Positions 12,110 to 50,587 of a DNA stretch of 64,000 nt are shown here, piece by piece. Under the pieces are notes generated by a model, which was given only the letters and a program-made list of their open reading frames with translations, had not been told where the DNA came from and did not search any database. The position numbers were made by a program, and so were the translations under genes. The DNA is from Nemertoderma westbladi. Its lineage: Eukaryota; Animalia; Xenacoelomorpha. The DNA lies in contig JAUCBJ010001840.1 in the NCBI GenBank assembly GCA_032718475.1, positions 1-64,000 of the forward strand. Direction: 5' to 3'. Numbering within the stretch: position 1 is the stretch's first letter; each line of letters opens with the position of its first letter.

Positions 12110-13177
12110 CCCTATTAGTACCGGGCTATAAAATGTTGTACAAATACCGGGGGCACAGCATTCTTAAAAATGCAGCTGCAATGCAGCATGCCGATCCTAG
12201 TAGTAGTAGGGGGGGGGGGGGGGTCATATTGACCCCCCCTCTAAAATCTACAAATATTTACGAAAACGTCTGATTTTTTGTTTGTACGTAGGTATCACTT
12301 GTCTGGATCCGACCGAAAAAAAAAATTTTCGAAAAAATGTACTGGGGTGGTTATATTGAAGCACCAAAATTACAAGTAGTGCACAATTTTCACCAAATTT
12401 GAAAGTTACATTTTCGGCTAATTATTTTTTAATACAGGTTTTCTGGGGTGCAAAATACATTGGAAAATATTAAAAAATGATATGATTACTATAAATGGCT
12501 GTTTAGTCCTCTCTGCGTAGGAAAAAAATGAAAAAAACAAGTAACCAGCACTTTTCAGTTAGAACACAAAATTTTTAATTCACTTATACGATGCTATAAA
12601 TTCACATTTTCAGGTTTTCGAGGGCGCTGATTCTAATGGAATACATTTCTAATATGCCAGATCATTGCTACTTGTATTTTTCGGCGTAATTTGGCAAATT
12701 TTGGTGCTAGCACCAAATTTCGTACCCATCACCAAAAAGTACAAGTTTGCGATGTCCAGTGCTGTTTTTATTGATTCCATCGGATTCAGGACCCTCATAA
12801 ACCCGTATAACGCAAGAAACAAGGTGATACTATCTACTTATCAATTTGCATATTTTCCAAAATTTGGTGCTGGCACAACAATTTTCACCCACCGGCGAAA
12901 AATACAAGTTTGAGAACTCTTATGAAATTTTTACTGATTCCATTGAATTCAGAACCATCACAAACCCGTATAACGCAAGAAACAAGGTGACACAATCAAT
13001 TGATATATTTGATGGTTTTCAAAATTTGGTGCTAGCACCACATTTTGCACCCACATCCGAAAAATACAAGTTTGAGATGTCTAGTTCGATAATTATATTT
13101 TCCATTGAATTCAAAACAGCCATAACCCTCTAAAACGCAAGAAATAAATTGTCACAAGCAATTTTATCTATTGAATG
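12110..13177 (+). mobile_element. piggyBac-type non-autonomous element, left part (truncated by BEL-1 LTR)
   Basis: TTAA (12106-12109) + CCCTATTAGTACCGGG; highly similar to the complete copy at 31601-33160 up to TTGAATG. Confidence 0.9.
12152..12208 (+). mobile_element. Extremely 5'-truncated RTE retrocopy (~57 bp)
   Basis: Identical to the RTE 3' end at ~30998-31047, plus a (TAG)n tail; absent from the second piggyBac-like copy. Confidence 0.85.
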
Positions 13178-14410
13178 TGTACGCGCTTTTGAAGACCTTT
13201 AGCAGTTTAACCTGCCAAAATTTATATGTCTTTTGGTTTATAAATAGACTTTAGAAGTTGACAAATATTTAATACCAATAAACACAACATTAGCAGAAGC
13301 CAGCCTAGTGCGCGTCCATTCACCCGCTGGATATACCCGGGAGACTGGATTCTGAGGGCTTAGATTATTATTGCAGTGTAAGCCTACTGTATTATTCGAT
13401 TGATCGTTAATAAATAATTTCTGACTAATATTATTCACTTTCGGGAAATATTAACAGTTCCTTTTGGACGTGGCGCTCTATCTAGGTAAACAGAGATATG
13501 ACTTATACTAATCACAACGGTAAGTCGGTAAGGCTTATGATTCACGTATGAGACGCATTCTTTAGGAAATGCTTAGTTATCAGTCACAATCAGGCACACT
13601 ACCGGTAACACACAATACTGCTCACTAATTTGCCGACCGTCAATGAATTTTATCATATATAAAGAGAGCAGCAACGGACTCATGTAGTGCTTATCAAATA
13701 GCATTAAATTCACTACAAACCACAACAATATAAGTCGCAATCGCTATATATAACCCGTCTCTCTAACCTGTAGTGTATCAAGAAAATTGGGAAATTTGGG
13801 TTCTTTATAAATGTTCTCCAAATAATAATATTCAACCAAAACACAACAGTAAATAGCATTAAGACGGTAGGTTAAGATGGTAACACTGTTTGACTGGACC
13901 GATAACAGTTATACGCTCTATAATCTTAAGCCTACTAATGTTTCTTCTAAAGTCTGAAACGAATTGACTCTAGAGCCGGTGTTCCTGGCCTAGATAGAAG
14001 GAACACAACAGTAACACAAAAACAGTAAGACTGAACACTCCTAGTATCATCGGCCGAATATCTCCACATCGACAGAAAAAATCGCTCTGATTGGCTTAAG
14101 CTAAACAAAGAACCATGTGTCCAATGGCCGTTTCCATGTCAGCAACCAGCTGTTAGATGTCGCAATCTGAATCATCAAGGCTAAGCTGTGTAAGGGTATT
14201 TGGTGCATTGCGGGTTTTTTGCCTTACCATGTCCTCCAAAGCACGTATATAGAAGAATGACTTTTATGTCCGTTAAAACACCTATAACGGTACCTTGCGG
14301 GCGAGAGGAACATATATATAGTTAGAGAGCCTTTTAGAGTATTCCAGCGCCTGGGGGGAAACTGGATTGCGAAGCAAAAGGGCCAGTTATATCCCACAGA
14401 AGCTTTTACA
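13178..14410 (-). repeat. BEL-1 3' LTR (1233 bp)
   Basis: Direct repeat of 24026-25243; plus strand TGTACGCG...CTTTTACA. Confidence 0.95.
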
Positions 14411-14418
14411 CCGCTCCC
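14411..14418 (-). promoter_or_regulatory. Polypurine tract GGGAGCGG of BEL-1
   Basis: Abuts the 3' LTR; identical 8-mer abuts the BEL-2 3' LTR (47428-47435). Confidence 0.8.
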
Positions 14419-14488
14419 AGAAAATGGGATTTGAGTCTATAAAATATACAAAATCACAGTTTCTAATATACGTAAATACTCTAAACAG

Positions 14489-15490
14489 TTAGTCTTTCTT
14501 GCGCGGACGGCGTTTACTCAGTTTTTTAAAGCTAGCCAGAGTCTTTTTCTCTTTGGGGCGAGCCACTTTACAAGGAGGGCTATAACTCCTGGGTGAAGGG
14601 TGCAATATGATTGCATCAGAGGGTGTAGGATTATGGTCGGTGTATCCGCCAGTCGAAGTACCGGGTTGATTGACATCAACGTCGGGGGAGAGGGGTCTAA
14701 CGGCTTTGAGAGCTCGTTTTAAGACAGCCGCTCTTACGGGTCCTTTACGAGTGGTCTGAACGAGAGCCGTGGGTGGACCATAGGCAGTTAGAAACCTCCG
14801 GGGTTTAATGGTTCTTTCCAACTCGCGTTCGCGGGCTCGGTATTCGTAAGGCCGTCGATATACTTCCTGTAACTCGGGGTGTGAGTTAACAAATAAGTCT
14901 CCATAGTCCGGATCCTGACGGATATAATTGATTAAGTTATAGGAATGAAGGTCGCTAGGATTAACACTCCTGAGAAATTTGCGTACGAATTTGGTTGAAA
15001 TACATTCTCCGACGCGCTTCAGTAGTTCGTAACTCGATATGCGTGATTTCTGTTCGACAGAAGCGAATAGATAAGGATGGAACGCATAAATTCCTTCGTA
15101 AGCGCGTCCAGGATAATAGCGATGGCGCGAATCACAATGTAAATCAGCGTTCGCTTCCCAAGCTCTGATGCAACGTAGTGTGATCATTTCATCTACGCTT
15201 TCCAAATCGCGATTAAAAGGGCAATCGAAACTGGCGTGTCCCTTTAGTTGACAATGGTGACATTGAGTCATAAATTGAGGGCAAACCGCAAAAATGTGCA
15301 AGTTATTGAGTCTGCAATACGCGCAATAAATTTCCATCGCCGGTTGTTCGTGGAAATAGGAACAGCGGACGCGTTTGTGTCCATGGGCGTAACATGGTCT
15401 CTCGATGCGCATAACCGACAACGTTGCCGAGAAACATAGTTGGCATGGCGATAATTGTACGCAGTGAGACACTGTGGACCTTGATACCAT
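14489..15490 (-). CDS. BEL-1 accessory ORF-B, 333 aa, Cys/His-rich with CCHC zinc knuckle and basic C-terminus
   Basis: ATG-initiated 1-kb ORF in element sense orientation; CHHCQLKGHASFDC (CX2CX4HX4C); further C/H clusters CYAHGHKRVRC and CAYCRLNNLHIFAVC; ends KKLSKRRPRKKD. Confidence 0.75.
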   Translation of the reverse strand: MVSRSTVSHCVQLSPCQLCFSATLSVMRIERPCYAHGHKRVRCSYFHEQPAMEIYCAYCRLNNLHIFAVCPQFMTQCHHCQLKGHASFDCPFNRDLESVDEMITLRCIRAWEANADLHCDSRHRYYPGRAYEGIYAFHPYLFASVEQKSRISSYELLKRVGECISTKFVRKFLRSVNPSDLHSYNLINYIRQDPDYGDLFVNSHPELQEVYRRPYEYRARERELERTIKPRRFLTAYGPPTALVQTTRKGPVRAAVLKRALKAVRPLSPDVDVNQPGTSTGGYTDHNPTPSDAIILHPSPRSYSPPCKVARPKEKKTLASFKKLSKRRPRKKD

Positions 15491-15540
15491 TCTAGGATGT
15501 AATCGTTGTCGCTGTTCCGGGCGCGATAGGCTGAATCTCC

Positions 15541-15939
15541 TCAGATTCTAGGCATATTGGTTCGTCTTCCCAGTCTGTTACGAATAGAATTTTCGTGATC
15601 TATTCTCGGTTTATCGTTACGACTCCGCTGGGTATGATATTTAAATAGAACCATTTCCCTTTCGGTGTCTACATCGTCCGTATCATGTAAATCGATAGGA
15701 TGGCCGGTAGTTAGGAAGTCCATATACGCACTATTACGATGCGTATAGCGAGCGGTGAATTTTCGATAGTCCAATTCACGCGTAAGTTGCTCTTGGGACA
15801 TCGGCGGTTCGATATAACGACCATCGTCCTCCGTAATGGTTGGATCGGTTTCACCGCGTATCAAGCTATCCACAAATGCTTGTAAAGGTAGAGTATATCG
15901 CTCCCTGATACCAAGATCATCTTCTATCAACTCCGTCAT
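15541..15939 (-). CDS. BEL-1 accessory ORF-A, 132 aa, unknown function
   Basis: ATG-initiated, acidic soluble composition, same strand and 50 nt upstream of ORF-B. Confidence 0.55.
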   Translation of the reverse strand: MTELIEDDLGIRERYTLPLQAFVDSLIRGETDPTITEDDGRYIEPPMSQEQLTRELDYRKFTARYTHRNSAYMDFLTTGHPIDLHDTDDVDTEREMVLFKYHTQRSRNDKPRIDHENSIRNRLGRRTNMPRI

Positions 15940-15981
15940 ATCTGCTATCTGAGTTTATTAATATTGTAATGAGTTTATGTT

Positions 15982-16124
15982 TAGGCGAGCGGGCGTCGCT
16001 GCCTACCTCTCTTCGCCCCCGGACAGTGGGATTCTCAGCGCCGATGTACCGTCGTCGCGGTGTTTACGCCAACATGTAGCAACAGCACGACAACGATAAC
16101 CGGCACAAGTCACTCCACTGTCCG
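15982..16124 (-). other. Predicted structured RNA element upstream of accessory ORFs
   Basis: 10-bp perfect inverted repeat 16020-16029/16115-16124; inner 12-bp stem 16048-16059/16086-16097 that needs three G-U pairs available only on the minus strand; second hairpin 15982-16005. Confidence 0.6.
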
Positions 16125-16754
16125 TCCCAAAGGCTTGAATCCACTTTAGGTTCTTTCTATAGGAGAGTTGGGCTACTTTCACAATTGCGACTAGCTACTG
16201 TAAACATACTTTAGCAGTAACATTCACCTATAAACGCACAAATTCCACACAACTGTCACCAATTGTACACATACAGGCCATTTGTCCGTTAGTCAGTGCC
16301 TTCCAGAATGTCACGTTATTACTGTGTATCTTTGGATACTAACAGTGTGCTATGTATTCTCTATGCTATGCAATGGGACAAGCTTTCTATTGTTCTTTTA
16401 ACTTGCTTCTAATTCTAGCGTGGGTGTTGCTATGGTGACATTATGGAATGCTAGCGGTAGAATTAGGGTAATTCTCATGCATACAGATCTGGAATGCTAT
16501 TTAATAGTAATTCTTTAATTGTCAATATCCTCTTTATGCATGATTTTATTAATTTTATCGGCTATTGACTATATGTTGGAGATTCTCGCACTCTAATACA
16601 CTCAATAGGATGAATCTCCGCTCCCATGATCTATTAATTAATGGAATTTTGGGAATGTTATAAATTGCACAAAATGACAATTTATGAAATTCATTTAAAA
16701 TATGAATTTAAATTTATTCCCGTGAATTTTATTATTTGATGTTAAAATTGACAC

Positions 16755-17020
16755 AATTTTATTCCAGAGCATGTCTGGGGACATAGGATCCTTAATTCTA
16801 TGAAAATTGTCTTTTAAGAGTATCGGTAAGTGCTGCGATATCTTAATTGACTAGAAATTTTAAAGGATCTGAATTTTACAGATTTTAATAAATATTAAAT
16901 TAATATTTAAGATGGGCACCGATTTATTCCAGAACTTGTCTGGGGACGTTAACCACTGATTCTAGAATTTGTCTTTCAAGTATATCGGTGGGTGCCGCGA
17001 TATCTTAATCGACTAGAATT
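16755..17020. repeat. Diverged tandem duplication (~165-bp period) in BEL-1 3' region
   Basis: TTTATTCCAGA..TGTCTGGGGAC..TTGTCTTT..TATCGGT..GCGATATCTTAAT.GACTAGAA occurs twice. Confidence 0.8.
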
Positions 17021-17569
17021 ACAGATGGTCAAAAGGTTTAACAGATTTATTTGCGTTTTACGCTACTGTTAGAGGGACATCACGCTACTATATGTATTAT
17101 TTAATATAAGGTAGAAGAGCAATATCGCACGAAGCAATGTCAGTGTGAAGAGGCAAGTCGTTTCCAAGGTCTACCCAGAGCTTGGTTTAGCCGAGACACG
17201 AGGATCTGAACTTTGCATTCCTAATACTCTGCCTACCAATAATACTTAAGTATAGTAGGAGCTTTATTGTACTTTAATAAGTACGGACATTTCATCTTAC
17301 TGTAGTCACGTATTTATAATATGATACGGACAGTAAGGAAAGAGAAAAAATAATTATTTCTCGCCGTCGCACTAAATATATTATAAGTAATTACGTACGT
17401 AATAAACACTAATATATTGCACTAATCTACTAAATAATCACTAAAATAACATTCTACTAAATAAAATTAAAGGAAACGATTATAATAAAATTACATAATA
17501 ATACTATACATAAATATAAAATAAAAACAAATATAAAATGATATAGTCACACGCCCACTCCATATGTTA

Positions 17570-20500
17570 TTACGTTATGGAGTCCCTAGATATTTGTCGG
17601 ATTAGGGAAGTGGTCGTAGGAAGAGTATCTTGCCTTCCATAGTTTCCGGACAGTTTTCGGTCTCTTTCCAGTAAACATAAACGACCAGCTGGGCGATTGA
17701 GTTGTTGTGTTACTTTCTCCGCTCCCTTGGCCTGTCTAACCTCCGCCGTGGTAAGATGAGGAGGCCATTCTTCTTCTTCTTTACTTAAGAAGTCGGATCC
17801 ACCTAACCAGCCTGGAGTATCTATCAGTTCTTGAGGAGTTGCTCCTCTGGAAGCGATGTCGGCTGGATTAATCGTCCCAAGGCAATGTCTCCATTGATCT
17901 ACATTGGAGTTAATATCGTCATTATCTGAGGAGTATGGTGTTCCCTCAGCTAGTTCGTCCACCTCACTGCTCTCCATTTCCCATTCCTTTACTTGGTATA
18001 CCTGTTGTTGAGGTAATCTCTCTTTGAGAGTTCTACGGGAAGGGCCAGTGAAGTACCAACCTACTCTAGTTCTTACCGCATAGGTTTGTAGTGGCTGTGG
18101 TTGAGCAGGCCGTTTCTCCAATGTCTCGAGCGCCTCATGCGCGTTTTGGCCGATGAGTATTTGCACTCCAGGATAATCTGTCTGGAATCGAGGTATCTTA
18201 AGATGTTGGATGCTCTCATCCTCGTCCCAATTATAAAGGTCTGCTTGAGTAGTAGCGAAGTTCTTTATAGCCACCATTTTTACCGACCTTATACCTTGTG
18301 CTCCTAATTTATCCTGGGGGGTGGACAACACACCTACATAGTAATCTGCCGTTAGGGTAGATTTCCAAACCTGCATAATTCCTGACATATTCAATTTAGT
18401 CCGGAATTTGGGTTGTCCAGCAAAGATATCTTCGGCTAGTTCTTGATCGATGAATGTTCCTGTGCTGCCGGAGTCAAGGAGGGCGTTCACTATGTAACTT
18501 TTGTTAGGACCGTGAACTCTTACCTGCACTACAGGAAATTCTCTGATTCCTACGTTGGAAGTTGGAGCTTTCCAAGATGGTTGTCTGTCAAAGGTAGTTG
18601 GGGGGAACTCATTGTCGGTGTCCTTTTCATGCGTAAGTGCTCGATACACTGCGGTATTTATTAGGTAACAGGATTCGTTGGCGTCGGAGAATTCGTCCGT
18701 ATAGAATCCTTCCATCTCAGATTCTTGATCAGTGTCATTTACATCACTGAATTGGACATGTAGTTCGGGCTCACTTACCTGACTCGGGTTGTCTCGTTCG
18801 AACTCACTGTGTAACAAGATGTGATGTTTCGCGCCACACTTTGCACACTTTACGTCGGAGTAACAGGTTCGCCGTTGGTGTCCTGATCTGAGGCAATTAT
18901 AGCATAACCGCTTATTCCACAGGACTGTACGTCTGTCTACAAGGGATTTCTTTAGAAATTCAGCACACGCACTCAAACGGTGGGGCCCGTCGCACAGCGC
19001 ACATTTTGGTTTGATGTTACTCACCTTACCTTGGGTAACGTTATGCACTCTCGTTCTTTCTTCGGGCTTTCTTCCGTGAATTCTCTTAGGAGACGTAGGA
19101 GGAGTTGTTGTTACCTGTTCTCTCCTGTCACTGGTTCGAGACTTGTATTTACTTACGTCTTTATAGGTCTTGTTGTCATAGTAAGATTTTGCTGTGTCTT
19201 TCCCGCTGTCCTCTTCTTGAGAAGCTTGGCTTTCGCCGTCGTCAGTATAACACACTGGTATTATCCTTCTCCTAGAAACGGGTTTCTCACTTACCTTATT
19301 TTCCGATGTTTTCTCTCTGGACTGCTTTATGAGTTGTAATTTTACTTCACTATCTAAGAAGGACATGAGATCAGCCATGGTAGGGCTTCGTCGTTGCTGC
19401 TCATTCATATACAACACTTTCTTGTCCCAACGTGTACATACTCCACCCTTAGGTAAAGTAGAGACTACGGCTCCAATAACCATGGAACTCTGATATTCAT
19501 GAGACTTACCTAACCAGTCCAATTGTCTACAGATCTCCTGAATCTCATCGGAAAACTCTATAATCCCGCTACTAAGGAAGTTTCTGGGGGCTACTAATTT
19601 TGCATACAAATACTTAGCTATGTTATCCTTGTTACCATACCTGATGTTTAATGTATCCCAAACTTGTCTTAATCCCTCTGGATGTCCAATAAACTTTAAC
19701 GCCATTAACTTGGGAGGTCCTTCCAAGCACTTGATGAGGAACCTAAGTTTCTCTCCGTTAGATAGTACAGAGTTCTGTATGCTATCTTTGTAATATTCAT
19801 TGAAAGGTAACCATTTCATCTCATCTCCATTGAATTTGACGATCTCTCCCACTTTGACCGCTTGGCGGGCTTCTGTTCTAGCCATCTGACGCGTAAAGCT
19901 TTCTTGGGCCATCGTGTTATTTAATATCGAATTATCGGTATATAAATTTCTCGGATCATTATCAGGTCTATAGGGAATATCATTAACAACAGGTTTATAA
20001 TCACCCTTAATAGGGTTTGCTATAGGAGTTTCTACTTCACTAGCAGTATAGATGCGTGTAGGCTCCACACCTTGCGCATGTAATACTTCAGACCTAACAG
20101 GTTGACACAATGTTACAGGGGGTATTGGTATCGCTTTTTGTATATTGACTAATTTGTCGCGTTCTAGAGCGATACTTTGCTGCACTTCTTGCAATTCGGC
20201 CCTACCTTCCCTTACTGTTCCCTTAAGTTGGTGGACAGTCTCCTGCATCTGTCCGAGCAGGAGATTCATCCCCCGCCGTCCCTCCTCTACCCACTCGACC
20301 GCCGAAGCGGGAGTCGCCAACATTGTAGCGGGCTGACGCGGGACGACGGGAGACAAATCTTTGATTTCTCTCTCAGCTTCCAGGACAGGGATATTCTCAT
20401 GGACTGTTCTACCGGGTACAGGCAGTGTAGTACTGTGTAGAGGGAATTTAGAGTTAAGCTCTGGAAGTACAGGGGTCTCTAGCACAGGAGTGGCTTTGGG

Positions 20501-21763
20501 AACGACAGGCCTAATTATTTCAGGCTCATCAACTATGGTAGGGAGTCTTTTGACCTTAATAATTTGGTCTGTGGGTTCTGTACTACCTAAGTCTGTGCTA
20601 GCTAGTTGTCTTCTGACAGCTGGGGGCAAATCAGGCAGTTTATGACGGTGAGATGTTTTTCTACGCCTGCTTAGACGAGATCTATTTCCTCCGCCTTCCG
20701 GATCGGTGGTCTCGCCTTCTTCCGATGATGTGTATTCTTGGCGTTTGGGAGTAGATCGACTCATCATCTGCATTTGACTAGCAGTTAACTGTTTATTTAT
20801 GTTGTCTTGCGTCTCTTGCAGATTTTCCAACTCCAGTTGGGTAGTCAGCTCAGACGCTCTCCGTTCTGCTTCTGCCACTGCCTTTGCCGCCTTTCTTTCC
20901 GCTTCTGCTTCTGCCGCCGCTGCCTTTCTTTCTGCTTCTGCTTCTGCCGCCGCTGCCTTTCTTTCTGCTTCTGCTTCTGCCGCCGCTGCCTTTCTTTCTG
21001 CTTCTGCTTCTGCCGCCGCTGCCTTTCTTTCTACTTCTGCTTCTGCCATGGTCGCCGCCTTTTGTTCCTCTATCCGTCTTTTCTTTACTTCTTCTTCCTG
21101 GACTCTAGCGAGGCGAAGTTTTTCATCAAATTTAGCTTGGTTTGCAGCTAACATTTCCGCATCGATTGCGTCCAACACAAGCTTGGTTCCTTCACTATTA
21201 GGGCGAAGTCCAGACAGTCGTCTCCTCAACTCTTCGTCTCCTATGAATCGCTGATAGTCTGACAGATAGATGTCAATGGCGTCTCTAGTTCGCGGCTTCT
21301 CTGCTGCTGTTAATTCGCTTTCCACTTCGCTTTCCACCTCGCTTTCCACTTGAGAAGAAGTGGCATCAGTTGATTCTTCATAGGTTGGCCGCTCATCATA
21401 AACCGTATCCACCATCTTCGCTCCGCGTTCGGGCGTCCGCTCAACAGTATCTGAACTACTGGAGCTATCGGGCCGCTGAGAACTAGGTTCTTGGCTAGGA
21501 GGTTGCTGCTGTTTTATAGCTTCTTCTTGATCCCGCTTGACTTGGGCCCGAGTACCTATGGCAGACCAACGGCGCTTCACTAACTTCGCAAATTGCGAAA
21601 TCTTTTCTACCAACCTAGGTTCTGACACAACCACTGCAGGGGTTGCCCTTCTTACAGTATGAGGGGTTTCAGACCTCGGTCTGGGATTCTCTACACTTTG
21701 ATCTGAGAAACAGGCTGTTGTTTCTAGGAGACTATCTGACAGAGTTTGCCTGGTGTCAGCCAT
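17570..21763 (-). CDS. gag-pro: BEL-1 Gag-protease polyprotein with in-frame pol remnants (no RT, RNase H core or integrase core)
   Basis: KFNGDEMKWLPF capsid motif; knuckles CALCDGPHRLSAC, CYNCLRSGHQRRTC, CAKCGAKHHILLH; protease ALLDSGS; AVRTRVGW; tail QWRHCLGTINPADIASRG and RPAGRLCLLE. Confidence 0.92.
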   Translation of the reverse strand: MADTRQTLSDSLLETTACFSDQSVENPRPRSETPHTVRRATPAVVVSEPRLVEKISQFAKLVKRRWSAIGTRAQVKRDQEEAIKQQQPPSQEPSSQRPDSSSSSDTVERTPERGAKMVDTVYDERPTYEESTDATSSQVESEVESEVESELTAAEKPRTRDAIDIYLSDYQRFIGDEELRRRLSGLRPNSEGTKLVLDAIDAEMLAANQAKFDEKLRLARVQEEEVKKRRIEEQKAATMAEAEVERKAAAAEAEAERKAAAAEAEAERKAAAAEAEAERKAAAAEAEAERKAAKAVAEAERRASELTTQLELENLQETQDNINKQLTASQMQMMSRSTPKRQEYTSSEEGETTDPEGGGNRSRLSRRRKTSHRHKLPDLPPAVRRQLASTDLGSTEPTDQIIKVKRLPTIVDEPEIIRPVVPKATPVLETPVLPELNSKFPLHSTTLPVPGRTVHENIPVLEAEREIKDLSPVVPRQPATMLATPASAVEWVEEGRRGMNLLLGQMQETVHQLKGTVREGRAELQEVQQSIALERDKLVNIQKAIPIPPVTLCQPVRSEVLHAQGVEPTRIYTASEVETPIANPIKGDYKPVVNDIPYRPDNDPRNLYTDNSILNNTMAQESFTRQMARTEARQAVKVGEIVKFNGDEMKWLPFNEYYKDSIQNSVLSNGEKLRFLIKCLEGPPKLMALKFIGHPEGLRQVWDTLNIRYGNKDNIAKYLYAKLVAPRNFLSSGIIEFSDEIQEICRQLDWLGKSHEYQSSMVIGAVVSTLPKGGVCTRWDKKVLYMNEQQRRSPTMADLMSFLDSEVKLQLIKQSREKTSENKVSEKPVSRRRIIPVCYTDDGESQASQEEDSGKDTAKSYYDNKTYKDVSKYKSRTSDRREQVTTTPPTSPKRIHGRKPEERTRVHNVTQGKVSNIKPKCALCDGPHRLSACAEFLKKSLVDRRTVLWNKRLCYNCLRSGHQRRTCYSDVKCAKCGAKHHILLHSEFERDNPSQVSEPELHVQFSDVNDTDQESEMEGFYTDEFSDANESCYLINTAVYRALTHEKDTDNEFPPTTFDRQPSWKAPTSNVGIREFPVVQVRVHGPNKSYIVNALLDSGSTGTFIDQELAEDIFAGQPKFRTKLNMSGIMQVWKSTLTADYYVGVLSTPQDKLGAQGIRSVKMVAIKNFATTQADLYNWDEDESIQHLKIPRFQTDYPGVQILIGQNAHEALETLEKRPAQPQPLQTYAVRTRVGWYFTGPSRRTLKERLPQQQVYQVKEWEMESSEVDELAEGTPYSSDNDDINSNVDQWRHCLGTINPADIASRGATPQELIDTPGWLGGSDFLSKEEEEWPPHLTTAEVRQAKGAEKVTQQLNRPAGRLCLLERDRKLSGNYGRQDTLPTTTSLIRQISRDSIT
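20870..21047 (-). repeat. 33-bp coding tandem repeat (AEAERKAAAAE)~5 in Gag
   Basis: Visible in both DNA and translation. Confidence 0.9.
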
Positions 21764-23134
21764 GTTTGATTGTACAGTTGAATGCCTACTGCTATATTAC
21801 AGTTAAAGCAAGTCTAGTAATTCAGTATCACTGTTAGCCTAATAATTAATTACCGATACTGCTACTCAGTGTAGCGTGATATATATATAATATATTAGAA
21901 TACCGGTATGCTTATAGTATATATAAGTATTGTACAGACTAGTTTTGTCACAGAATACAGGTATATAATTTTGGCACAAATATATATAAATATATAATAG
22001 GCCTATCGTGAATACCGGTATGCAGCTTACACTTATAGTATATAAGTATAATTCTGGACTAGAATTAATTACAGAATACCGGTATGATTTCAGCTCAAAT
22101 TTATAGAAATAAATATAATAAGCCTATGATAAATACCGGTATGTCAATTATTTTAGAATAATTGAATTTCTGAATATTTTAGGGTTACTTGGTTACTTTA
22201 ACTTACTTTGTTACCGTTATTTAAGCAGCAGTCCAACTGATATTTAGACCTAGTTGTTGTATGGCAGGCCTACTATTTATAAATCGTTTGAGTTGATTTA
22301 TAATAGATATATACCCGTTTAAAAAGGGGTTTTGTCAATATTTGAAATAAATGTTATTATTTCTGGGGAAGTCACTACACAGAAGCTGTGCGCTCTCAGT
22401 GAAGTGCTACCTATGGGACACTAAAACAGATAATTCTAATTTACCTAAGTTACTTAATACTACAATTACTTACGATATGGGTGAGATTAAATCTCTAATT
22501 AAACACAACAAAAATATTACGTACGAAATTTTAGGGTAATTTTACAGGAAGTCTACAAACCAGCCTAACAAAGGGTTAGAATTCTGGTTATTACAACGAA
22601 CAGGGTACTACGGTATTTGAAAATAATAAGTAGTAGTAAATACACTGCGTTGTCCAGATAGGAAAATACCACCGCCTGACGACCTATAACCGTATCGCTA
22701 TAGGTACTACGTTATGTATCACGGAGTGTTCCTACCTAGAAGTTAATTACCGCGGACTACCAGATCCAGCGTGCCTATTAACCACTTTACAACACAAATA
22801 TACTGCCTACGCACTAATTACCTCGGAAAGCACTGTACACTAAACCCTAAATTAGGTACAAGTACTGGTACAACAAATAATCAGTAGTTAAATATACTTG
22901 AACAGTTAAAAGAACCACGGCATCTGCTGGAGTGACCGAAGCACAAAGTCACCAGTCTTTTCCTACGCCAAGCAGCCCGTGTAGTACCGGGGTTAATTTA
23001 ACTATAACGGTATGTGTAACAAGCTCAATTACTGTAGGAATAAACTTGGGGACATGAATGTTGCGAATAATCGCATAAACTCTGAATAATAAATATTACG
23101 CTACCCGTACAGAATACTCAAACAAAAATACAAA

Positions 23135-23640
23135 CCAAACGCTGGCAGACTACCACCAAGCCTAAATAAACTACCGTACGTGTAGATTCCAAAATGGTTA
23201 GTTAGTATGCGTTCTAACACGGTAGTACGACTTATTCTTTAAGAGGGGATTGACCTTACAGCTATGGCTGCCCCAACTTACTAACTGGCACTTTATCAGA
23301 CAAACTCACCACACGCAGCAATCTCTTCAGACCTAATAATAGCTAGACAACAATCCAGCCTACAAAATATCTGAGTAATAACTATTACGGTACCTGAACA
23401 GACTACACAAACAAACACAGGCCAAAACGTTGGCAGAATACTGTCAAGCCTAAATAAACTACAGTATGTGCAGATTCCAAAATGGTTAGTTAGTATGCGT
23501 TCTAACACGGTAGTACGACTTATTCTTTAAGAGGGGATTGACCTTACAGCTATGGCTGCCCCAACTTACTAACTGGCACTCTATCGGACAAACTCTACAC
23601 ACGCCGCAATCTCTCCAAACCCAACAACAATCCGACAACA
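23135..23640. repeat. ~288-bp tandem duplication in BEL-1 5' leader
   Basis: CCTAAATAAAC..GATTCCAAAATGG..CTAACTGGCACT at 23161 and 23449. Confidence 0.85.
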
Positions 23641-23834
23641 GTACGGCCTACAATTATCTGAACAATCTGAGCAGACTTACACGTCTTCAGCTCAATGTTA
23701 ACTTACATGTAAATAAAACCGACAGAAATAAGTAAAATCTCAATAAAAAACCAGGGCTGCAGTCCCTGATTAAATACTAAGACCTACCGGTATACAATAA
23801 TCAAAATCGAATAATACTAATGTACTTATACTGG

Positions 23835-23965
23835 AAGTACCGGTTAGGACAGTTGGGCCTACGGACCTACAGAAGTACCGGTTCTGGCAGTTGGACCTAC
23901 GGACCTACAGCAGTACCGGTTCTGGCAGTTGGGCCTACTCACCTACAGAAGTACTGGTTCAGGTT
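23835..23965. repeat. ~38-bp tandem repeat in BEL-1 leader
   Basis: AGTACCGGTT..CAGTTGG.CCTAC..ACCTACAG about 3.5 times. Confidence 0.8.
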
Positions 23966-24014
23966 TACCGGTCGACCGGTACTTTCAACTTTATTGCTTA
24001 CTGCAATAAAGACA

Positions 24015-24025
24015 ATAACTGTTAT
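24015..24025 (-). promoter_or_regulatory. Candidate self-priming PBS of BEL-1 (sense ATAACAGTTAT)
   Basis: Directly follows the 5' LTR; no TGG; exact complement within LTR at 24734-24744 (and 13902-13912). Confidence 0.7.
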
Positions 24026-25243
24026 TGTACGCGCTTTTGAAGACCTTTAGCAGTTTAACCTGCCAAAATTTATATGTCTTTTGGTTTATAAATAGACTTT
24101 AGAAGTTGACAAATATTTAATACCAATAAACACAACATTAGCAGAAGCCAGCCTAGTGCGCGTCCATTCACCCGCTGGATATACCCGGGAGACTGGATTC
24201 TGAGGGCTTAGATTATTATTGCAGTGTAAGCTTACTGTATTATTCGATTGATCGTTAATAAATAATTTCTGACTAATATTATTCACTTTCGGGAAATATT
24301 AACAGTTCCTTTAGGACGTGGCGCTCTATCTAGGTAAACAGAGATATGACTTATACTAATCACAACGGTAAGTCGGTAAGGCTTATGATTCACGTATGAG
24401 GCGCATTCTTTAGGAAATGCTTAGTTATCAGTCACAATCAGGCACACTACCGGTAACACACAATACTGCTCACTAATTTGCCGACCGTCAATGAATTTTA
24501 TCATATATAAAGAGAACAGCAACGGACTCATGTAGTGCTTATCAAATAGCATTAAACTCACTACAAACCACGATAATATAAGTCGCAATCGCTATATATA
24601 ACCCGTCTCTCTAACCTGTAGTGTATCAAGAAAATTGGGAAATTTGGGTTCTTTATATATGTTCTCCAAATAATATTCAACCAAAACACAACAGTAAACA
24701 TTAAGACGGTATGTTAAGTTATGATATGAACTGATAACAGTTATACGCTCTATAATCTTAAGCCTACTAATGTTTCTTCTAAAGTCTGAAACGAATTGAC
24801 TCTAGAGCCGGTGTTCCTGGCCTAGATAGAAACAACACAACAGTATCACAAAAAACAGTAAGACTGAACACTCCTAGTATGATCGGCCGAATATCTCCAC
24901 ATCGACAGAAAAAATCGCTCTGATTGGCTTAAGCTAAACAAAGAACCATGCGTCCAATGGCTGTTTCCATGCCAGCAACCAGCTGCTAGATGTCGTAATC
25001 TGAATCATCAAGGCCAAGCCGTGTAAAGGTATTTGGTGCATTGCGGGTTTTTTGCCTTACCATGTCCGCCAAAGCACGTATATAGAAGAATGACTTTTAT
25101 GTCCGTTAAAACACCTATAACGGTACCTTGCGGGCGAGGGGAATATATATACAGTTAGAGAGCCTTTTAGAGTATTCCAGCGCCTGGGGGGAAACTGGAT
25201 TGCGAAGCAAAGGGGCCAGTTATATCCCACAGAAGCTTTTACA
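24026..25243 (-). repeat. BEL-1 5' LTR (1218 bp)
   Basis: Direct repeat of 13178-14410 with scattered SNPs and one diverged block (~24695-24732). Confidence 0.95.
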
Positions 25244-25470
25244 GGGGGGGGGGGGACTGGATGCAATAAAAATGCATCCCTATCCAGGGGAAATGCTGCT
25301 TACGAGCAAAAATCAAACTGTAACCTGTTCTATTGTGTTTAGTTTATTGTTTTGGTTAAAATAACGTCCCACTGTAACCTGCTCCTTTCCCTAAATTGAG
25401 AATTTCACATTGAGGCGGGATATTAATTCGCCAAGGCGGGCTTTGCATCCAGTCCCCCCCCCCCTGTCTC
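25244..25470. mobile_element. MITE, second copy of the 890-1146 family, left tip missing
   Basis: G-run+ACTGGATGCAA / TTGCATCCAGT+C-run+TGTCTC; internal similarity to 990-1140. Confidence 0.8.
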
Positions 25471-25479
25471 AAATCATAA

Positions 25480-25640
25480 GATCTTATGGAATCCCATAAG
25501 TAATTGTCGCTGGCATTGGATTGTTATATTGTGACACAGAAGCTCAGGTACTACTCCCACCAAATGATGAAACTGAGTTCTTCACAATCCTAACTGTGGT
25601 AGTGCAAGGTGACACTTTGGCGCCAGTACTATTCCTAATT
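25480..25640 (+). pseudogene. RTE reverse-transcriptase fragment
   Basis: Translates YGIP*..DETEFFTILTVVVQGDTLAPVLFLI, homologous to the RT at ~29935-30090. Confidence 0.75.
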
Positions 25641-28150: not shown

Positions 28151-31013
28151 ATGGGTATTCAAGAGCACCGAATGCAGACAGGACAGACTGGTGAGGTTCT
28201 GATTAAGGAAATGGTGGGCGGTTGGCGACTCGCCCTCGCATCAGCAGATGATAGTGGCAATGGTGGTATTGGTCTATTGATGAATCCAACTGCACATGGA
28301 GCATTGGACAAAATAGACCAAATCTATAACCGCATCATCCGTTGCCACTTCTCATTCTGGAAGACTGGCTAAGAAGTTTCCTAAGGTGGTTCTGATTGTG
28401 TGCTACTCTCCAACTAGTGTTGCCCTTGTAGAGGAGGTTGAAAATTTCTACCACAATCTACAAGCAGCTACTGATGGAGTGGATGAGCATGCACTCTTAA
28501 CATTCCTGGGAGACTTTAATGCAAGTCTGCATCAATCACCTACATCGCCCTGGGTTTATAGCGTTAGTGTTAACCGAAATTCCGTCCATCTTCAGAATTG
28601 TATCTCTGGAAATGGATTGTTTTCGGCTGGAACCCAGTTCAAGAAGGGAACAGGAAAGCAATGGACTCATAGTGGACCCAGTGGTCACAAGTCCCAGATA
28701 GACCATATTCTGTTTTGTAGGAAATACAGGAGCTCCATACAAGACTGTATTGCATTTACACTTCGACCCTTCTCCAGTGATGACCGCCTTATTGTGGCCA
28801 AGGTAAGACTTAGTCTGCGTGCTAGCAGAACAACGAAATCTGCCTTGCCGCGGCATGACTGGTCCTCTCTGTTGCAACAGCCAAGTGTGAGATCCAGCTT
28901 CACACTACAGCTGAGCAACAGGTATGAGGTTCTTGCCTCTGAGGCGGCAGATCACTGTGAGGGCTATACTGCCTTCACAGAGGCAGTTAAGTTAGCAGAA
29001 ACAGTTCCTGTATACCCTCGAAACAGGAAACGGGCCCCCTGGACTGACGACAAAATTCAGAAGTGCCGAAATGACGTCTACAAGGCGCAGAAAGAGTCCC
29101 GACTCAAACAGACTACAGCGGCCAAGAATGCAGTTAAGGCTGCATCTAGGTACCTGAACAGGCAGTACTCTGTTAATTTACAGGAGCTATTAAACCAACA
29201 GGTTGATGCCATCAATAATGCTGACGAAAGCAGGCAATCATCCCAGGCATGGAGATCGATCAACTTGCTTGCTGGTCGAAAAAGCCAACCAACCACCAAG
29301 GTTAAGGCTGAATCACCAGCCGATCGCCTCAATGGTTGGAAAGCCCACTTTGAAAAGCTCCTCAATAATGACAGGGTATTGCCTGATAACTTTATAGAAG
29401 TAAAAGTGTCTGAGTCAGTACTCCCAGATATTCCCATTGGTGATATCTCCTTTGCAGAAGTGAAGGCTGCTGCAAAGAGCATTAAGACCAATCGTGCCAG
29501 TGGAGTAGATGGTCTTCCCCCTGAGGTCTTTAAAATACCTGAGTGTTTAAAGCTCATCTATCCCATCATAGTAGACATGTACCGAACAACAAGAGTCCCA
29601 CAAGAAATGAAAACAAATAAGTTGGTGCCAGTTCCCAAGAAGGGCAACCTAACACTCTATGGTTCTTTTCGGGGAATCCAATTGATCTCGATTGCTGCAA
29701 AGCTATACAATAGAATTCTATTAAATCGCATCAGGGATCCCATTGAGAGACTGCTCCGTAGAAATCAGAATGGGTTCCGTAAAGGTCGTGGGACCATGGA
29801 GCCCATTTTGGCACTTAGAAGGATAATTGAAGAGTTATCAAAAAAGAAAGACAGGCATCTGGCTGTTATCTTAGTTGACTTCTTCAAGGCCTTTGATTCA
29901 GTCTCTCGCTCACGTATGTTCAGCATACTTTCATTATATGGGATTCCTGATGAAATTATTGCAGCAATCAGATCAGTATACGATGGTTCGACAACATTTG
30001 TGTCTACTGTTGACGGTGACACAGAACCATTTGAAGTGTTATGGGGCGTCCTCCAGGGAGACACACTTGCACCATTCTTGTTCATAATTGTTGTTGACTA
30101 TGTTCTACGCATGTCCTTAGATCATCATAATGATGATGGGGTGATGATAACTCCACCTACTGACTCCAGAAGTCGAGGAAATCCTGCCAAGTACCTAACT
30201 GATCTAGACTTTGCTGATAACTTAGGAGTACTCTCAGAATCACTAGAGGGAGCCCAACGGCTCCTCAGCTCATTAGAACATGCTGCTTCTAGTGTTGGTC
30301 TTTTTATTAACTCCAGAAAGTCCAAAATTTTGACAGTTAACTTTGAAAGTCCTCAGCAAGTCTCTGATCAGAGAAGCATAAGCTCAAAAGATGGTATGCT
30401 TGAGCATGTGGATGACTTCTGTTACCTGGGATAATGGATCCGGAAGTCAGGTGAGGACCTTCGAATACGTAAGGGAAAGGCATGGGCAGCCTTGAATAGG
30501 CTTTCCAGGATTTGGAAGTCACCGAAGTCACATAGAAATAATAGGAAACGATTATTAAGGTAAGGTAAGGTCCGATTATTTAGAGCAGCAGTAGTTCCAG
30601 TACTCCTCTATGGGAGTCCATGCTGGGCTCTAACTGCTGAGGACACCAAATCTCTGGATGGCACATTCACAAGAATGCTACGCCGGGTTCATTTTGTCAA
30701 GTACAATGCACACATCTCCAACCAGACACTATATAACATTGGAGGTGTCTCATTGGTTCCCCCAAGTTTGACACTGGAACAAAATCGCCTCCGCTTTGCA
30801 GGACATTGCTTTCGCCGCGAGGACCAGCCAGTGCATAATCTTGTACTTTGGCAGCCTCATGGAGTGAATAAGCATGGTGGACAGCCCATGACTTTCTTGA
30901 GACGCATCTTAAAGGACACTGGTCTTGAAGATGCAGATGATCAAGCAAATGTCATGGGTGATAGGGAGTTGTGCCGGTGCAATTTTGTCGATAAGCCGGC
31001 ACAGCATTCTTAA
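28151..31013 (+). pseudogene. RTE APE-RT ORF, broken (main piece 28386-30434)
   Basis: Stops/frameshifts at ~28372 and ~30434; catalytic FADD changed to FADN; SDH changed to SDD. Confidence 0.88.
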
Positions 31014-31600: not shown

Positions 31601-33160
31601 CCCTATTAGTACCGGGCTATAAAATGTTGTACAAATACCGGGGGGGGTCATATTGACCCCCCCCCCCCCTCTAAAATCTACAAATATTTACGAAAACGTC
31701 TGATTTTTTGTTTGTACGTAGGTATCACTAGTCTGGCTCCGACCGAAAAAAAAATTTTCGAAAAAATGTACTGGGGTGGTTATATTGCAGCACCAAAATT
31801 ACAAGTAGTGCTCAATTTTCACAAAATTTGAAAGTTACATTTTCGGCTAATTATTTTTCAATACAGGTTTTCTGGGGTGCAAAATACATTGGAAAATATT
31901 TAAAAATGATATAATTACTATAAATGGCAGTTTAATCATCTCTGCGTAGGAAAAAAATGAAAAAAACAAGTAACCAGCACTTTTCAGTTAGAACACAAAA
32001 TTTTTAATTCACTTATACGATGCTATAAATTCACATTTTCAGGTTTTCGAGGGCGCTGATTCTAATGGAATACATTTCTAATATACCAGATCATTGCGTC
32101 TTGCGATTTTTTAGCGTAATTTGGCAAATTTTGGTGCTAGCACCAAATTTCGTACCCATCACCAAAAAGTACAAGTTTGCGATGTCCAGTGCTGTTTTTA
32201 TTGATTACATCGGATTCAGGACCCTCATAAACCCGTATAACGCAAGAAACAAGGTGATACTATCTACTTATCAATTTGCATATTTTCCAAAATTTGGTCC
32301 TGGCACAACAATTTTCACCCACCGGCGAAAAATACAAGTTTGAGAACTCTTATGAAATTTTTACTGATTCCATTGAATTCAGAACCATCACAAACCCGTA
32401 TAACGCAAGAAACAAGGTGACACAATCAATTGATATGTTTGATGGTTTTCAAAATTTGGTGCTATCACCACATTTTGCACCCACATCCGAAAAATACAAG
32501 TTTGAGATGTCTAGTTCGATAATTATATTTTCCATTGAATTCAGAACAGCCATAAACCTCTAAAACGCAAGAAATAAATTGTCACAAGCAATTTTATCTA
32601 TTGAATGGATTTTCAAAATTTCGTGCTAGCACCAAAATTTGCACACAGCAACGAAAAATACAAGTTTGATACGCTTGGTGCAACTCGTATATATTTCATC
32701 GTATCCAGAACCCCAAAAAACTCCAATTGCGTAAAAACAAGTTTCAAACAATTAATTTACTAAATTTACTTATTTCAAAATTTGGTGCTGGCACCAAAAT
32801 TTGGCACCCACCGAAAAAAACAAGTTTGAAATTTCTAAATCAATTTATATGAATTCCATCCAATTTCTAACACCAAAAAACCGGTGTAAATCAAAAATAG
32901 AGATGTTACAATTCATATTTAATGAAATGTAATTTTCAAAAAACGACTCAAAAAAAGTGCCAAAAGTAGGGTTAAAAAATGGTGCTATAACTCGAAAAGT
33001 ACCCAATATTTTTGAAAACGGTTTTCACTACTAGGACGACAATAGAGTTTTAGGAAAAGTCATAAAATTTCAGATTCCCAACTACTTTTGTTTCAGAATT
33101 ATAATAAAAAAACCACGGGGGGGGGGGTCATATTGCCCCCCCCCCCCGGGTTTAATAGGG
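31601..33160 (+). mobile_element. Complete piggyBac-type non-autonomous element (1560 bp)
   Basis: TTAA TSD at 31597-31600 and 33161-33164; TIR CCCTATTA..CCGGG; subterminal G(n)TCATATTG(A)C(n) palindromes; internal ~133-bp tandem units; no transposase. Confidence 0.92.
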
Positions 33161-34052: not shown

Positions 34053-35219
34053 TGTAAAAGCTTTTGCGTAATTAGCCGGTTATTTTCCCGTAAAGTACTC
34101 TGTAGTTGGTTTACCAGGCATAAAAAGGCCGTGTTCTTACTGTACTGGTGTTTTAGAGGACATAAAAGTCATTTCTTCTGTATGTGTACTTTAAAGGACA
34201 TAATCCGTAATTTCGTGACGCAATAGCTGGATACTCTTGAAAACAGTGGCGCTACCATGACGACGGCTAGCAGCTGATATTGCCACGTCGACAGTTCTTT
34301 GTTTCTTTGTTCTCTCGTTGTTCGGTTGACCAATCAGAGCGTTTGTTGTCTCTGTGTTGGAGGTGTATACAGAGGCTCAGTAGTTCAGTGTTATGTTTTG
34401 CCCAGAGCCTAAGAACCGGCTTTTGGCACCTCCGTGTTTTCAGTTTTTATCTTACACTAGTAGGCTTAATTATAAGGACATATATCCGTTATCTCAACAT
34501 AACATAACATACCATACCTAATCAAACAACCTGTGCATACTTTTATATTGTTATACTGCTATTTACTGTCAGTTCTTCATAATATGGTTGATGAATTATT
34601 ATATTTGGAATAACGATAAATAACCCCGAAAACCCAATATTCTTGATATACCGAAGGTAAGAGAGAAAGGTTACATATAACGATTGTGACTTATGTTAAA
34701 GTGGTTTGAAGTGAATCTAATGTTATTTGATAGACCCTACATGATTCGGTCTGTGTTCCTTTTATATGTGACTAAAATCAGTGAAGATCGGCAGATTAGT
34801 GTGCAGTATTGTGCAGCATTGTGTATTAGTGAGACTGATAACGAAGCATTTCCTAAAGAATGCGCCATATATGTGAATTATAACTAAGCCATATCGTTGT
34901 GAGTAGTTTAAGTCATAACTCTGTTTATATAGGTAGAGCGCCACGTCCTAAAGGAACTGTTAATATTTCCCGAAGATGAATAATATTGTCAGAAATTATA
35001 TAATACTGTCAGTCGAATAATACATTAGGCCTACATAGCAATACGATTAAGCCGTCGAACCCAATCTCCCGGGTATATCCAGCGGGTGAATGATCGCGCA
35101 CAGATTGGTTTCGACTAGTGTAGTGAATCAAATACTTGTCATAGGCTAAAAGCGAATTATTATCTAGAAGACATCCTAATTTGGCGGGTTAAACTGCCAA
35201 AGGTCTGAAAGCGCGAACA
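34053..35219 (+). mobile_element. Solo LTR of a BEL-1-related subfamily
   Basis: TGTAAAAGCTT...GCGCGAACA; ATTAT TSD (34048-34052, 35220-35224); blocks match the reverse complement of the BEL-1 LTR (e.g. TAGAGCGCCACGTCCTAAAGGAACTGTTAATATTTCCCGAA; TCTCCCGGGTATATCCAGCGGGTGAATG). Confidence 0.9.
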
Positions 35220-35540
35220 ATTATTATTTATTAACTATTTATATAGCGCTCTTCTGAGCCAGATTCAGAGCGCTTAAAAAATAAATATAAAAATTATAAT
35301 CATGAAAATTAAAAAAACACAATCAGTTGAGATATAAAATAATTTAAAAGTGTCAACATTATAAGTCACCAGTAAAGTAAAATAATTGATGGTCCTACAA
35401 GTTTATTCACCATATTCTGCTCTGAATAGGAACGTCTTTAGCCTATTTATTTTTAAACGTGTCCAATGAGGGTGGCTCTCTAACTGACTGGGGGATAGAG
35501 TTCCAAACAGTAGGTGCCGCAACGGAAAATGCTCGTCTAC
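35220..35540 (-). pseudogene. L2 LINE 3' end
   Basis: Minus strand RRAFSVAAPTVWNSIPQSVREPPSLDTFK..LKTFLFR; L2-type terminal stem AAGCGCTC..GAGCGCTATATAAA and (AAT)n tail. Confidence 0.75.
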
Positions 35541-38325: not shown

Positions 38326-38660
38326 GATAGGGGTCTGTTTGTGTGCAGATGTTCGGTAGGTCATTCGATTCTACTAAGAATAACAATGTTGCTAGAATAC
38401 TGTCAACGCTGTCAACGTCTTTAGTTTTTGACACTGCATGCCCAACTTTCACTGATTGAGTTCTATCTGATAGATAGCTACGTATCATTTCCCATAGTTT
38501 TCCCCGAATTGCTAATTTTCATAATTTTAGTAGCACCGAACTATGAGATATAGAATCAAAAGCCTTTTGAAAGTCTAGATAAATTATTTCTACTGTTGAA
38601 TCACATTATTTTCTATAGCGTGATATATTTTATCTAAAACCACAAGCAGTTGAAGAACGG
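38326..38660 (-). pseudogene. CR1-type RT fragment
   Basis: Minus strand IYLDFQKAFDSISH...IRSYLSDRTQSVKVG...LFLV..NDLP. Confidence 0.75.
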
Positions 38661-44240: not shown

Positions 44241-44310
44241 CTTATCAATCTCAGTTTTTAAAGTTGTATAGCTGGCTCCTTGAGCGTAGCCAGTCGCCTA
44301 CATAGGTAGT
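44240..44310 (-). pseudogene. Unique LINE ORF2 C-terminal stub continuing from the satellite
   Basis: Minus strand reads SLP...then (with a shift) TFK.TEIDK directly after the last satellite monomer. Confidence 0.5.
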
Positions 44311-46825: not shown

Positions 46826-47427
46826 TATCACGTTGGCTAAAAGAATCCTTTGTGAAGATTCTATAGCCGGGAAGGAAATAAGGAGGGCCGGTTGCGGTAC
46901 TCCAAGTATTTCTTCCCCTGGGCCACGTGTAAGCCTTGACTGGGCTGATAATTCTAGAGCTACTTTTATAAGGATGTCCAAACCTCCCAAACAGACTCCA
47001 GGCTCTCCCTGCACCTTAATATAAATACCCAAACTGCCAAACCCAATAGAGTTACCTGATTGCCAAAGTTACCTTGCTCGCTTGACCGCGAGTGAAGCCC
47101 CTCCCCACGGCGGAATAGAGTGACGGAAATATAAGTTGTAACCAACGATATAATAGAGAACGGACGACGGACCCGGTGACCTGGTGGATTGTTCTAGGCG
47201 CTGGTGAGTAATGTTGTTTGTTATTGTAGGATTGGGAACAAATCCCATAAGAACTTTATGAATTCTCCCAGTCAGTAGTTAGCAGTACTGCAGTATGCCT
47301 ACATCGGTAGGCTACTCTCTGTGTTGCAGGAGTAGTGCAGTCGTGTCCTGTCACTTCTGCTGTCTGCTATCTGATGGATACCGGAAGTGTCATTTTGTCA
47401 TTTCACAGGCCACCAGGTGACGTCATA
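46826..47427 (-). repeat. BEL-2 3' LTR (TA..TA termini)
   Basis: Plus strand TATCACG...CGTCATA; direct repeat of 58335-58936. Confidence 0.95.
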
Positions 47428-50586: not shown

Positions 50587-50587
50587 C

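Follow-up and report, generated by a model that had tools for sequence, protein, structure and literature searches.

A gene under purifying selection with zinc-knuckle motifs in the env slot of a BEL/Pao retrotransposon family of Nemertoderma westbladi

What occupies the env position of a BEL/Pao retrotransposon that has lost most of its pol region, and does it belong to the element family? The question is raised by an element of Nemertoderma westbladi that lies in a window of 64,000 nt of contig JAUCBJ010001840.1 (the whole stretch of DNA that was analysed) and is read on the minus strand, which is its sense strand. A sequence-only reading of this locus had described two intact accessory ORFs at the env position, and had proposed that they supply an undescribed nuclear factor that binds nucleic acids and serves export, transactivation or anti-silencing.

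The element and its env position

The element is bounded by a pair of LTRs with TG...CA ends, as expected for a BEL/Pao LTR retrotransposon. From 5′ to 3′ in the sense direction it is laid out as follows.

24026–25243, minus strand: 5′ LTR of 1218 nt, TG...CA, 96.3% identical to the 3′ LTR
24015–24025, minus strand: 11-nt site adjoining the 5′ LTR and able to pair with LTR positions 24734–24744 (also present in the 3′ LTR)
21764–24014, minus strand: long leader that contains internal direct repeats and no sense ORF of any length
near 23943 and near 23310, minus strand: two splice-donor-like sites in the leader
17570–21763, minus strand: gag-protease ORF of 1397 aa, with a BEL RNase H piece and an integrase end at its C-terminus
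15940–17569, minus strand: spacer of 1630 nt, 35% GC, without a sense ORF of more than 63 codons from stop to stop
in the spacer, just upstream of the ORF-A ATG, minus strand: CAG acceptor-like sites
15541–15939, minus strand: ORF-A, 132 aa, which probably forms the N-terminal portion of the accessory gene, with selection at 15714–15877
14489–15490, minus strand: ORF-B, 333 aa, with its stop 78 nt from the 3′ LTR
14411–14418, minus strand: short purine-rich tract resembling a polypurine tract and adjoining the 3′ LTR, from reading of the sequence
13178–14410, minus strand: 3′ LTR of 1233 nt, TG...CA

The two ORFs of 132 and 333 aa on the sense strand, the spacer of about 1.6 kb and the 78 nt to the 3′ LTR are thus as originally described. 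Within the gag-protease ORF, a BEL-type Gag (DUF1759, E = 2.9e-12, with three Cys/His motifs) is followed by an aspartyl protease that is weak in Pfam (E = 0.018). The Cys/His columns of Gag are invariant across eight aligned proteins, and the seven homologs of this ORF, at 21–29% identity, carry BEL/Pao Pfam domains, with Peptidase_A17 and DUF5641 present.

The tail of the same ORF marks the end of pol. In tblastn against the complete BEL element of the window, ∼17896–17690 matches the C-terminal RNase H piece (E = 1e-14) and ∼17740–17633 the last integrase residues (E = 0.008). The RNase H end lies upstream of the integrase end in the same frame. The copy lacks the reverse transcriptase (RT), the integrase core and the greater part of RNase H, in line with the earlier statement that pol is deleted. 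To judge from these remnants, the RT and the integrase core were deleted in frame and the natural pol end was retained. The frame 17570–21763 is open to the integrase C-terminus despite two separate deletions, one of the RT and most of RNase H and the other of the integrase core. Because the RNase H and integrase remnants end the gag-protease ORF, the accessory ORFs lie 3′ of the pol end and occupy the env position that had been assigned to them.

No target-site duplication, which is usual for LTR insertions, is present: the flanks at 13173–13177 and 25244–25248 differ. Both flanks lie inside other repeats, the left one occurring also at 31640–32607 and the right one matching 901–951. This fits an origin of the element as a recombinant of two insertions, which may have taken place. 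The missing duplication bears on the history of this copy more than on BEL/Pao membership, and given a possible recombinant origin the 96% LTR identity need not date the insertion. Rfam gave no match over 13000–25500 at E up to 1.

A TGG, the usual start of a tRNA primer site, is absent after the 5′ LTR. Complementarity of the post-LTR sequence to the element's own RNA, as in the 11-nt site, is known from Tf1-type self-priming, and 24015–24025 is a possible self-priming site. A match of 11 nt is reached at 8 of 9595 internal positions, and the site is paired in the lowest-energy fold of a stretch whose start was set by us, with a pair probability of about 0.36. The complementary site lies 500 nt into the LTR. 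Given that the 11-mer is near-palindromic, a repeated binding site is an alternative to self-priming. Among the titles and abstract openings of the literature searched, none concerns a self-priming BEL element.

Other repeats surround the element. A second, different BEL/Pao element (∼47000–58937) has gag-pol and integrase in two frames (50591–56272 and 48859–50619) and repeats of at least 429 nt that are 99.5% identical. No minus-strand ORF of 70 codons is found between its integrase and its repeat, so that this element lacks the accessory gene described here. It is flanked by two arrays of 73-nt tandem repeats with strong G and A skew (44200–47000 and 59000–64000). At 34592–35222 there is a partial LTR-like copy, ∼78% identical to the LTR of our element and in opposite orientation, and at 41725–43723 there are pieces of yet another BEL-like pol, the third in the window, which is degraded. 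The plus-strand ORF at 28317–30431 (705 codons) reads by eye like a LINE endonuclease-RT. Long imperfect inverted repeats of short units (35540–38330) surround a minus-strand ORF of 224 codons (36869–37540), possibly a DNA transposon.

Copies, selection and reading frame

The accessory region was found in six of the nine public runs listed. Contigs of four runs (X1, X3, X4 and X5), one of which is possibly the source of the window, were compared over 14300–16400. X4 may be an RNA run, and it was not taken as a sign of expression. The four runs gave 18417, 5112, 102 and 359 contigs at 80–100% identity, and all 30 bins have depth in every run; this depth is no measure of copy number. Copies were read through short contigs, which cover this 3′ region of the element without a break, from the LTR across ORF-B and ORF-A to the spacer. 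At no site within 14300–16400 do many molecules begin or end, and one diverged contig bridges the end of the 3′ LTR and the end of ORF-B. Since the contigs cover the region and enter the 3′ LTR, it belongs to the family and is not a nested insert: the accessory region is a regular part of a many-copy BEL/Pao family. A separate nested element, which the sequence-only reading had named as a possible source of the ORFs, was rejected, as there are no termini of its own, no breakpoint across 14300–16400 in the contigs of the four runs and, when the window is compared with itself, no pair of repeats on either side of the ORFs.

Selection was assessed from the best-supported 40 of 548 variant rows over 14300–16400, of which 34 lie within 14489–15939; being a selected and non-independent subset, in which long contigs favour diverged lineages, they give indicative figures. 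In the ORF-B frame below 15370, 15 of the 23 listed variants are synonymous (expected fraction 0.29, P = 3e-4), as are 6 of 10 in ORF-A (expected 0.28, P = 0.03). At 15714–15877 in ORF-A, the six listed variants with a share of less than 90% are all synonymous. For a split by share, 33 of the 34 rows were used, 15552 being left out as the frame is uncertain there; rows whose share is at least 90% in each of the two deep runs were classed as specific to the copy lineage and the remaining 26 as polymorphic. All seven listed lineage-specific changes are non-synonymous, whereas 21 of the 26 listed polymorphic variants are synonymous (expected 0.285, P = 5e-8, rough pN/pS 0.09), and the two classes differ with a Fisher P of 2e-4. 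No listed variant alters a ligand codon of the knuckle motifs. As far as such indicative figures go, the gene of the family is under purifying selection and the copy in the window is decaying. A dN/dS near 1, which had been named beforehand as evidence against an accessory gene, is thus not what the family shows. Sense ORFs of at least 282 aa occurred in none of 1000 composition-matched random sequences, and those of at least 132 aa in 15 of 1000. We are highly confident that the region contains a real accessory gene of the BEL/Pao family.

The frame in which this gene is read differs from the ORFs of the window copy. Apart from ORF-A, three stretches have to be distinguished.

15526–15560, minus strand: short stretch whose listed variants point to the third reading frame, with a frameshifting indel near 15520 that differs between lineages
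15373–15520, minus strand: selected stretch in the ORF-A frame, beyond the ORF-A stop, with CX2CX4H at 15420–15394
14489–15369, minus strand: selected part of ORF-B, ∼292 aa, ending in a Pro-rich and Lys/Arg-rich tail

Over 15373–15520, 20 of the 27 listed variants are synonymous in the ORF-A frame (P = 1e-6), against 3 of 27 in the ORF-B frame, in which 3 of the listed variants create stops. As selection above ∼15370 is found in the ORF-A frame and not in that of ORF-B, the start of ORF-B is wrong, and its residues 1 to ∼40 with the ATG are not part of the family protein. In the four runs, this ATG, at 15490, is altered in 5–25% of the contig depth. The selected segments are three: the ORF-A frame at 15714–15877, the ORF-A frame at 15373–15520 and the ORF-B frame below 15370. 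The view that the family has two distinct ORFs that begin where they were first placed is not supported. The CX2CX4H in the selected frame gives the family protein three knuckle-like motifs in a row.

Over 15300–15585, the comparison drew on the best 40 of the 57 variant rows and on 32 of 1343 contig records. All eight listed contigs that bridge the position near 15370 by at least 31 nt to the left and right have the same frameshifting gap there relative to the window, and by depth the gap is present in all of X5 and X4, in 48% of X1 and in 33% of X3; the remaining X1 and X3 depth may stem from short contigs that were aligned without a gap or from a sub-lineage that shares the state of the window. 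This frameshift, together with the seven non-synonymous lineage-specific changes, contradicts the view that the ORFs have been kept intact. Near 15520, eight of the eleven listed bridging contigs are gapped and three are ungapped; the deepest X5 bridging contig (2918 of 3734) is ungapped. At 15531–15552 none of the three listed variants changes the protein if the third frame is read (P = 0.02), and two diverged contigs each have a single gap within 15609–15871. At 15560–15670 the third frame may be the coding one. The stop at 15541 does not appear among the best 40 of the 57 variant rows over 15300–15585. The ungapped deepest X5 contig and the absence of this stop from the listed rows imply that a large sub-lineage shares the split of the window copy.

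These data bear on whether A and B are one gene or two, and none of the listed contigs spans ORF-A to ORF-B. We favour one gene of ∼480 codons, from the ORF-A ATG to the ORF-B stop, as the probable arrangement. The frame change near 15520 in eight of the eleven bridging contigs and the single gaps of the two diverged contigs speak for it. Such a gene would have several breaks in the window copy, and some of the family would share this broken state. Two separate accessory genes, with ORF-A encoding 132 aa and the knuckle protein made by splicing or from an internal ATG (15384 or 15337), would agree with the apparent retention of the 15541 stop in a major sub-lineage, with the three of eleven listed contigs that are ungapped near 15520 and with the good context of the ATG at 15337; the ORF3s of rotifer elements also typically come from spliced messages, according to the available text of their description (PMC5408684). 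Yet selection reaches at least to 15520, upstream of both internal ATGs, and starts there would leave this stretch untranslated. Its first in-frame ATG is at 15384, and without an earlier one translation has to enter the stretch from upstream. On reading of the sequence, no strong pyrimidine tracts accompany the acceptor-like sites that lie between A and B. Two genes are for these reasons rather unlikely. ORF calls from a single deleted copy can misplace the start of a gene and split it, a pitfall that this locus illustrates.

Protein features and the search for relatives

The part of the protein encoded by ORF-B has three features, the second of which is predicted at low confidence.

15221–15325, minus strand: knuckle pair, ORF-B residues 56–90, with CX2CX5HX4C (56–70) and CX2CX4HX4C (77–90)
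14786–15214, minus strand: helical segment of ∼140 aa, predicted helical at low confidence, without a family or structure match
14492–14581, minus strand: Lys/Arg-rich and Pro-rich tail, with 13 Lys/Arg among the last 30 residues of ORF-B

The canonical CX2CX4HX4C and the basic C-terminus are thus present, as the sequence-only reading had it. The third Cys/His cluster that it had counted falls within residues 1 to ∼40, in the unselected frame. ORF-A is acidic (26 Asp/Glu among 132 residues). The judgement of the sequence-only reading that neither product is env-like agrees with our results: the highest hydropathy over 19 residues, by which a signal peptide was also judged, is 1.03 for ORF-B and 0.46 for ORF-A, neither ORF has an N-x-S/T site, and no fusogen family or structure was matched in Pfam or the PDB.

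The best PDB sequence match of the knuckle pair is yeast Air2 (PDB entry 2lli, E = 0.0024 over 39 residues, with a hand-picked query of 59 aa), and the whole 292-aa piece of ORF-B has no match there. In Pfam the knuckle piece reaches zf-CCHC_3 at E = 0.018, below the cut-off; the full-length ORFs match no family, and pieces scanned at E up to 1–10 match no exonuclease or esterase (DEDDy/GDSL), gag or ORF1 family. None of 457 candidate homologs of ORF-B at near lengths reaches E = 0.001, and none of 60 candidates for ORF-A at longer lengths reaches E = 1. HMMER over 1.84 billion representatives gave two matches, both of which were dropped, one being summed over repeats and the other a generic multi-knuckle protein. 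Scans of viral and metagenome contigs with ORF-B, gag-pro and an alignment gave no relative and no complete member of the family, and the best PHROGs matches have E = 0.18 and 0.32. ESM Atlas neighbours of the 292-aa piece are mostly zinc-knuckle clusters with scores of 0.75–0.82 (below 0.9 and thus at the level of leads), and residues 93–240 of ORF-B gave nothing there. The proposed check by AlphaFold and Foldseek yielded no confident fold: two single-sequence models have pLDDT values of 38 and 39, and the second has no Foldseek match at E = 0.001. A similarity of ORF-A to the UFD1 N-terminal domain (E = 0.5) was rejected as chance level; it gives E = 0.36 over the same residues when the third-frame stretch is added, and this stretch alone does not find UFD1. 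By these searches the accessory protein is an orphan, without a relative in the databases searched and without a confident fold.

In base composition the accessory region is set apart from its surroundings. CpG observed/expected is 1.36–1.51 over 14678–16177, compared with 0.77 in the window, 0.62 in the second BEL element and 0.42 in the LINE ORF; the accessory ORFs have 1.3–1.6 against 0.77 in gag (P = 0.003 for CG versus GC counts). The difference from gag fits a separate origin or an escape from methylation.

A separate origin could mean that a host gene fragment of the ZCCHC/Air type is passively carried, or that the region is a nested element. The CpG content and the Air2-like knuckle spacing would agree with such a capture. 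Selection across diverged lineages of the family, unbroken contig cover from the LTR over both ORFs to the spacer, the missing flanking repeat pair and the failure to find a host homolog among the 1.84 billion representatives make it highly improbable.

It could also mean a gag or ORF1 captured from another retroelement or, with the same kind of activity, a second nucleocapsid-like RNA chaperone that acts in the particle or the cytoplasm. CCHC knuckles are typical of Gag and of LINE ORF1, copia and retroviral nucleocapsid chains appear in the PDB search at E = 0.29–0.71, and the CpG difference suits a different origin. We nevertheless consider this unlikely. Similarity to the element's own Gag is lacking (best E = 0.26, at which a duplication of this Gag was also discarded), no gag or ORF1 family is matched in Pfam, the element already has a Gag with three motifs, and the basic C-terminal tail follows a segment that is not capsid-like.

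Proposed role and known counterparts

With no homolog and no confident model, the function of the protein has to be read from its motifs. CCHC knuckles mostly bind single-stranded nucleic acid. The knuckle spacing that matches Air2 and the zinc-knuckle neighbours in the ESM Atlas (leads) were counted toward RNA binding, and the protein is probably a nuclear RNA binder. A factor acting on the LTR at the level of DNA or chromatin, as a transactivator or against silencing, would suit the acidic N-terminal part (ORF-A) and the basic tail, and additional ORFs of plant LTR elements are nuclear as far as the accessible portions of the reports tell (PMC7264820, PMC11728184). No DNA-binding fold was found with Pfam, the PDB or Foldseek, however, and the type of knuckle argues for a single-stranded ligand, which renders this role improbable.

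Returning to a nuclear RNA binder, we propose the following sequence of events. The protein would be expressed from a spliced or internally started RNA, for which the acceptor-like sites before ORF-A and the donor-like sites in the leader are candidates. The basic tail would direct it into the nucleus, and the knuckles would bind single-stranded RNA. It may then coat the unspliced RNA of the element and help it through nuclear quality control and export, in the manner of Rev or of CERV from Cer1. Acting in trans, it would not have to be encoded by a working gene in deleted copies, which would explain the decay of the gene in copies without pol. That the protein specifically exports or stabilizes element RNA is suggested by analogy and must be called doubtful. 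The complete picture, of a selected gene at the env position that is frameshifted here and probably encodes one likely nuclear protein of ∼480 residues binding the element's own RNA, is tentative, with chances a little short of even.

The closest counterpart in function may be CERV of the C. elegans element Cer1, a nuclear Cys-rich protein made from spliced RNA and needed for export of Cer1 RNA (PMC10309623). In the available text of that source, CERV is likewise lineage-restricted, has ∼500 aa and combines a Cys-rich finger with a basic candidate NLS. It differs, compared by description, in being spliced with exons shared with gag and in its candidate C4 finger, whereas our gene is placed 3′ of pol and its knuckles are of the CCHC type. 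Close counterparts in position are the ORF3s of the bdelloid rotifer LTR elements Juno, Vesta and TelKA, which are of GDSL esterase, DEDDy exonuclease, coiled-coil and TM types (PMC5408684). As far as the consulted portion of that paper goes, these are also family-specific non-envelope third genes between pol and the 3′ LTR; they have enzyme or membrane domains, unlike the gene described here, which has tandem CCHC knuckles and no enzyme family match and resides in a BEL/Pao element. The orphan 3′-ORF F58H7.5 of a C. elegans LTR element (bioRxiv 10.1101/073510) and the additional ORFs of plant LTR elements, some of them predicted to be nuclear (PMC7264820, PMC11728184), similarly lie downstream of integrase and before the 3′ LTR, and they show no homology to env. 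Tandem knuckles are not reported for them in the accessible parts of these sources, and they belong to other superfamilies or hosts. Upstream small ORFs are described for the Drosophila MDG1 group in the available text of a further report (10.1101/2025.03.14.642691).

The similarity to Air2 consists of a CX2CX5HX4C closely followed by QCX2CX4HX4CP; nothing outside the knuckles matches, and the family protein has at most three motifs. Air2 serves in TRAMP RNA surveillance, and Air1, Air2 and ZCCHC7 have four to five knuckles and an IWRxY linker. Two complete knuckles and one partial motif are present here, and the linker is absent from the translations.

Within BEL/Pao, Tas and Cer7 are among the elements with env-like genes. 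Others are roo, with an F-type protein, and mosquito BEL elements, with chuvirus-like glycoproteins, in the available text of the source (PMC13524379). Our gene shares the position and the superfamily with these and differs in having no signal or membrane segment by hydropathy, no N-glycosylation sites and no glycoprotein match. The accessible parts of surveys of marine BEL/Pao elements and of a network study (PMC8220671, PMC6238403, PMC8556966, PMC2774666) contain no zinc-knuckle third gene. Nor was a zinc-knuckle third ORF in BEL/Pao found in the rest of the literature searched, a largely open-access set of main texts and abstracts, and an earlier annotation, in Repbase for example, may exist. 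Non-env third ORFs are thus already known in other LTR lineages, and none of the zinc-knuckle type was found for BEL/Pao.

A bolder idea is that this lineage is a 'complex' retroelement without an envelope, whose nuclear multi-knuckle protein mimics host RNA-surveillance adaptors of the Air2/ZCCHC7 type to shield or export its own RNA, and which possibly also primes its own reverse transcription instead of using a tRNA; this we regard as a long shot. The weight of the finding is limited by the non-env third ORFs known elsewhere and by a function proposed from analogy. In the available portions of the literature examined, the third genes of BEL/Pao elements resemble envelope genes. If the env slot here holds a multi-knuckle protein that is selected and not membrane-bound, BEL/Pao elements, like Cer1 and the complex retroviruses, would also recruit regulators that act inside the cell. 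The protein is a candidate for how they may get their unspliced RNA past nuclear quality control.
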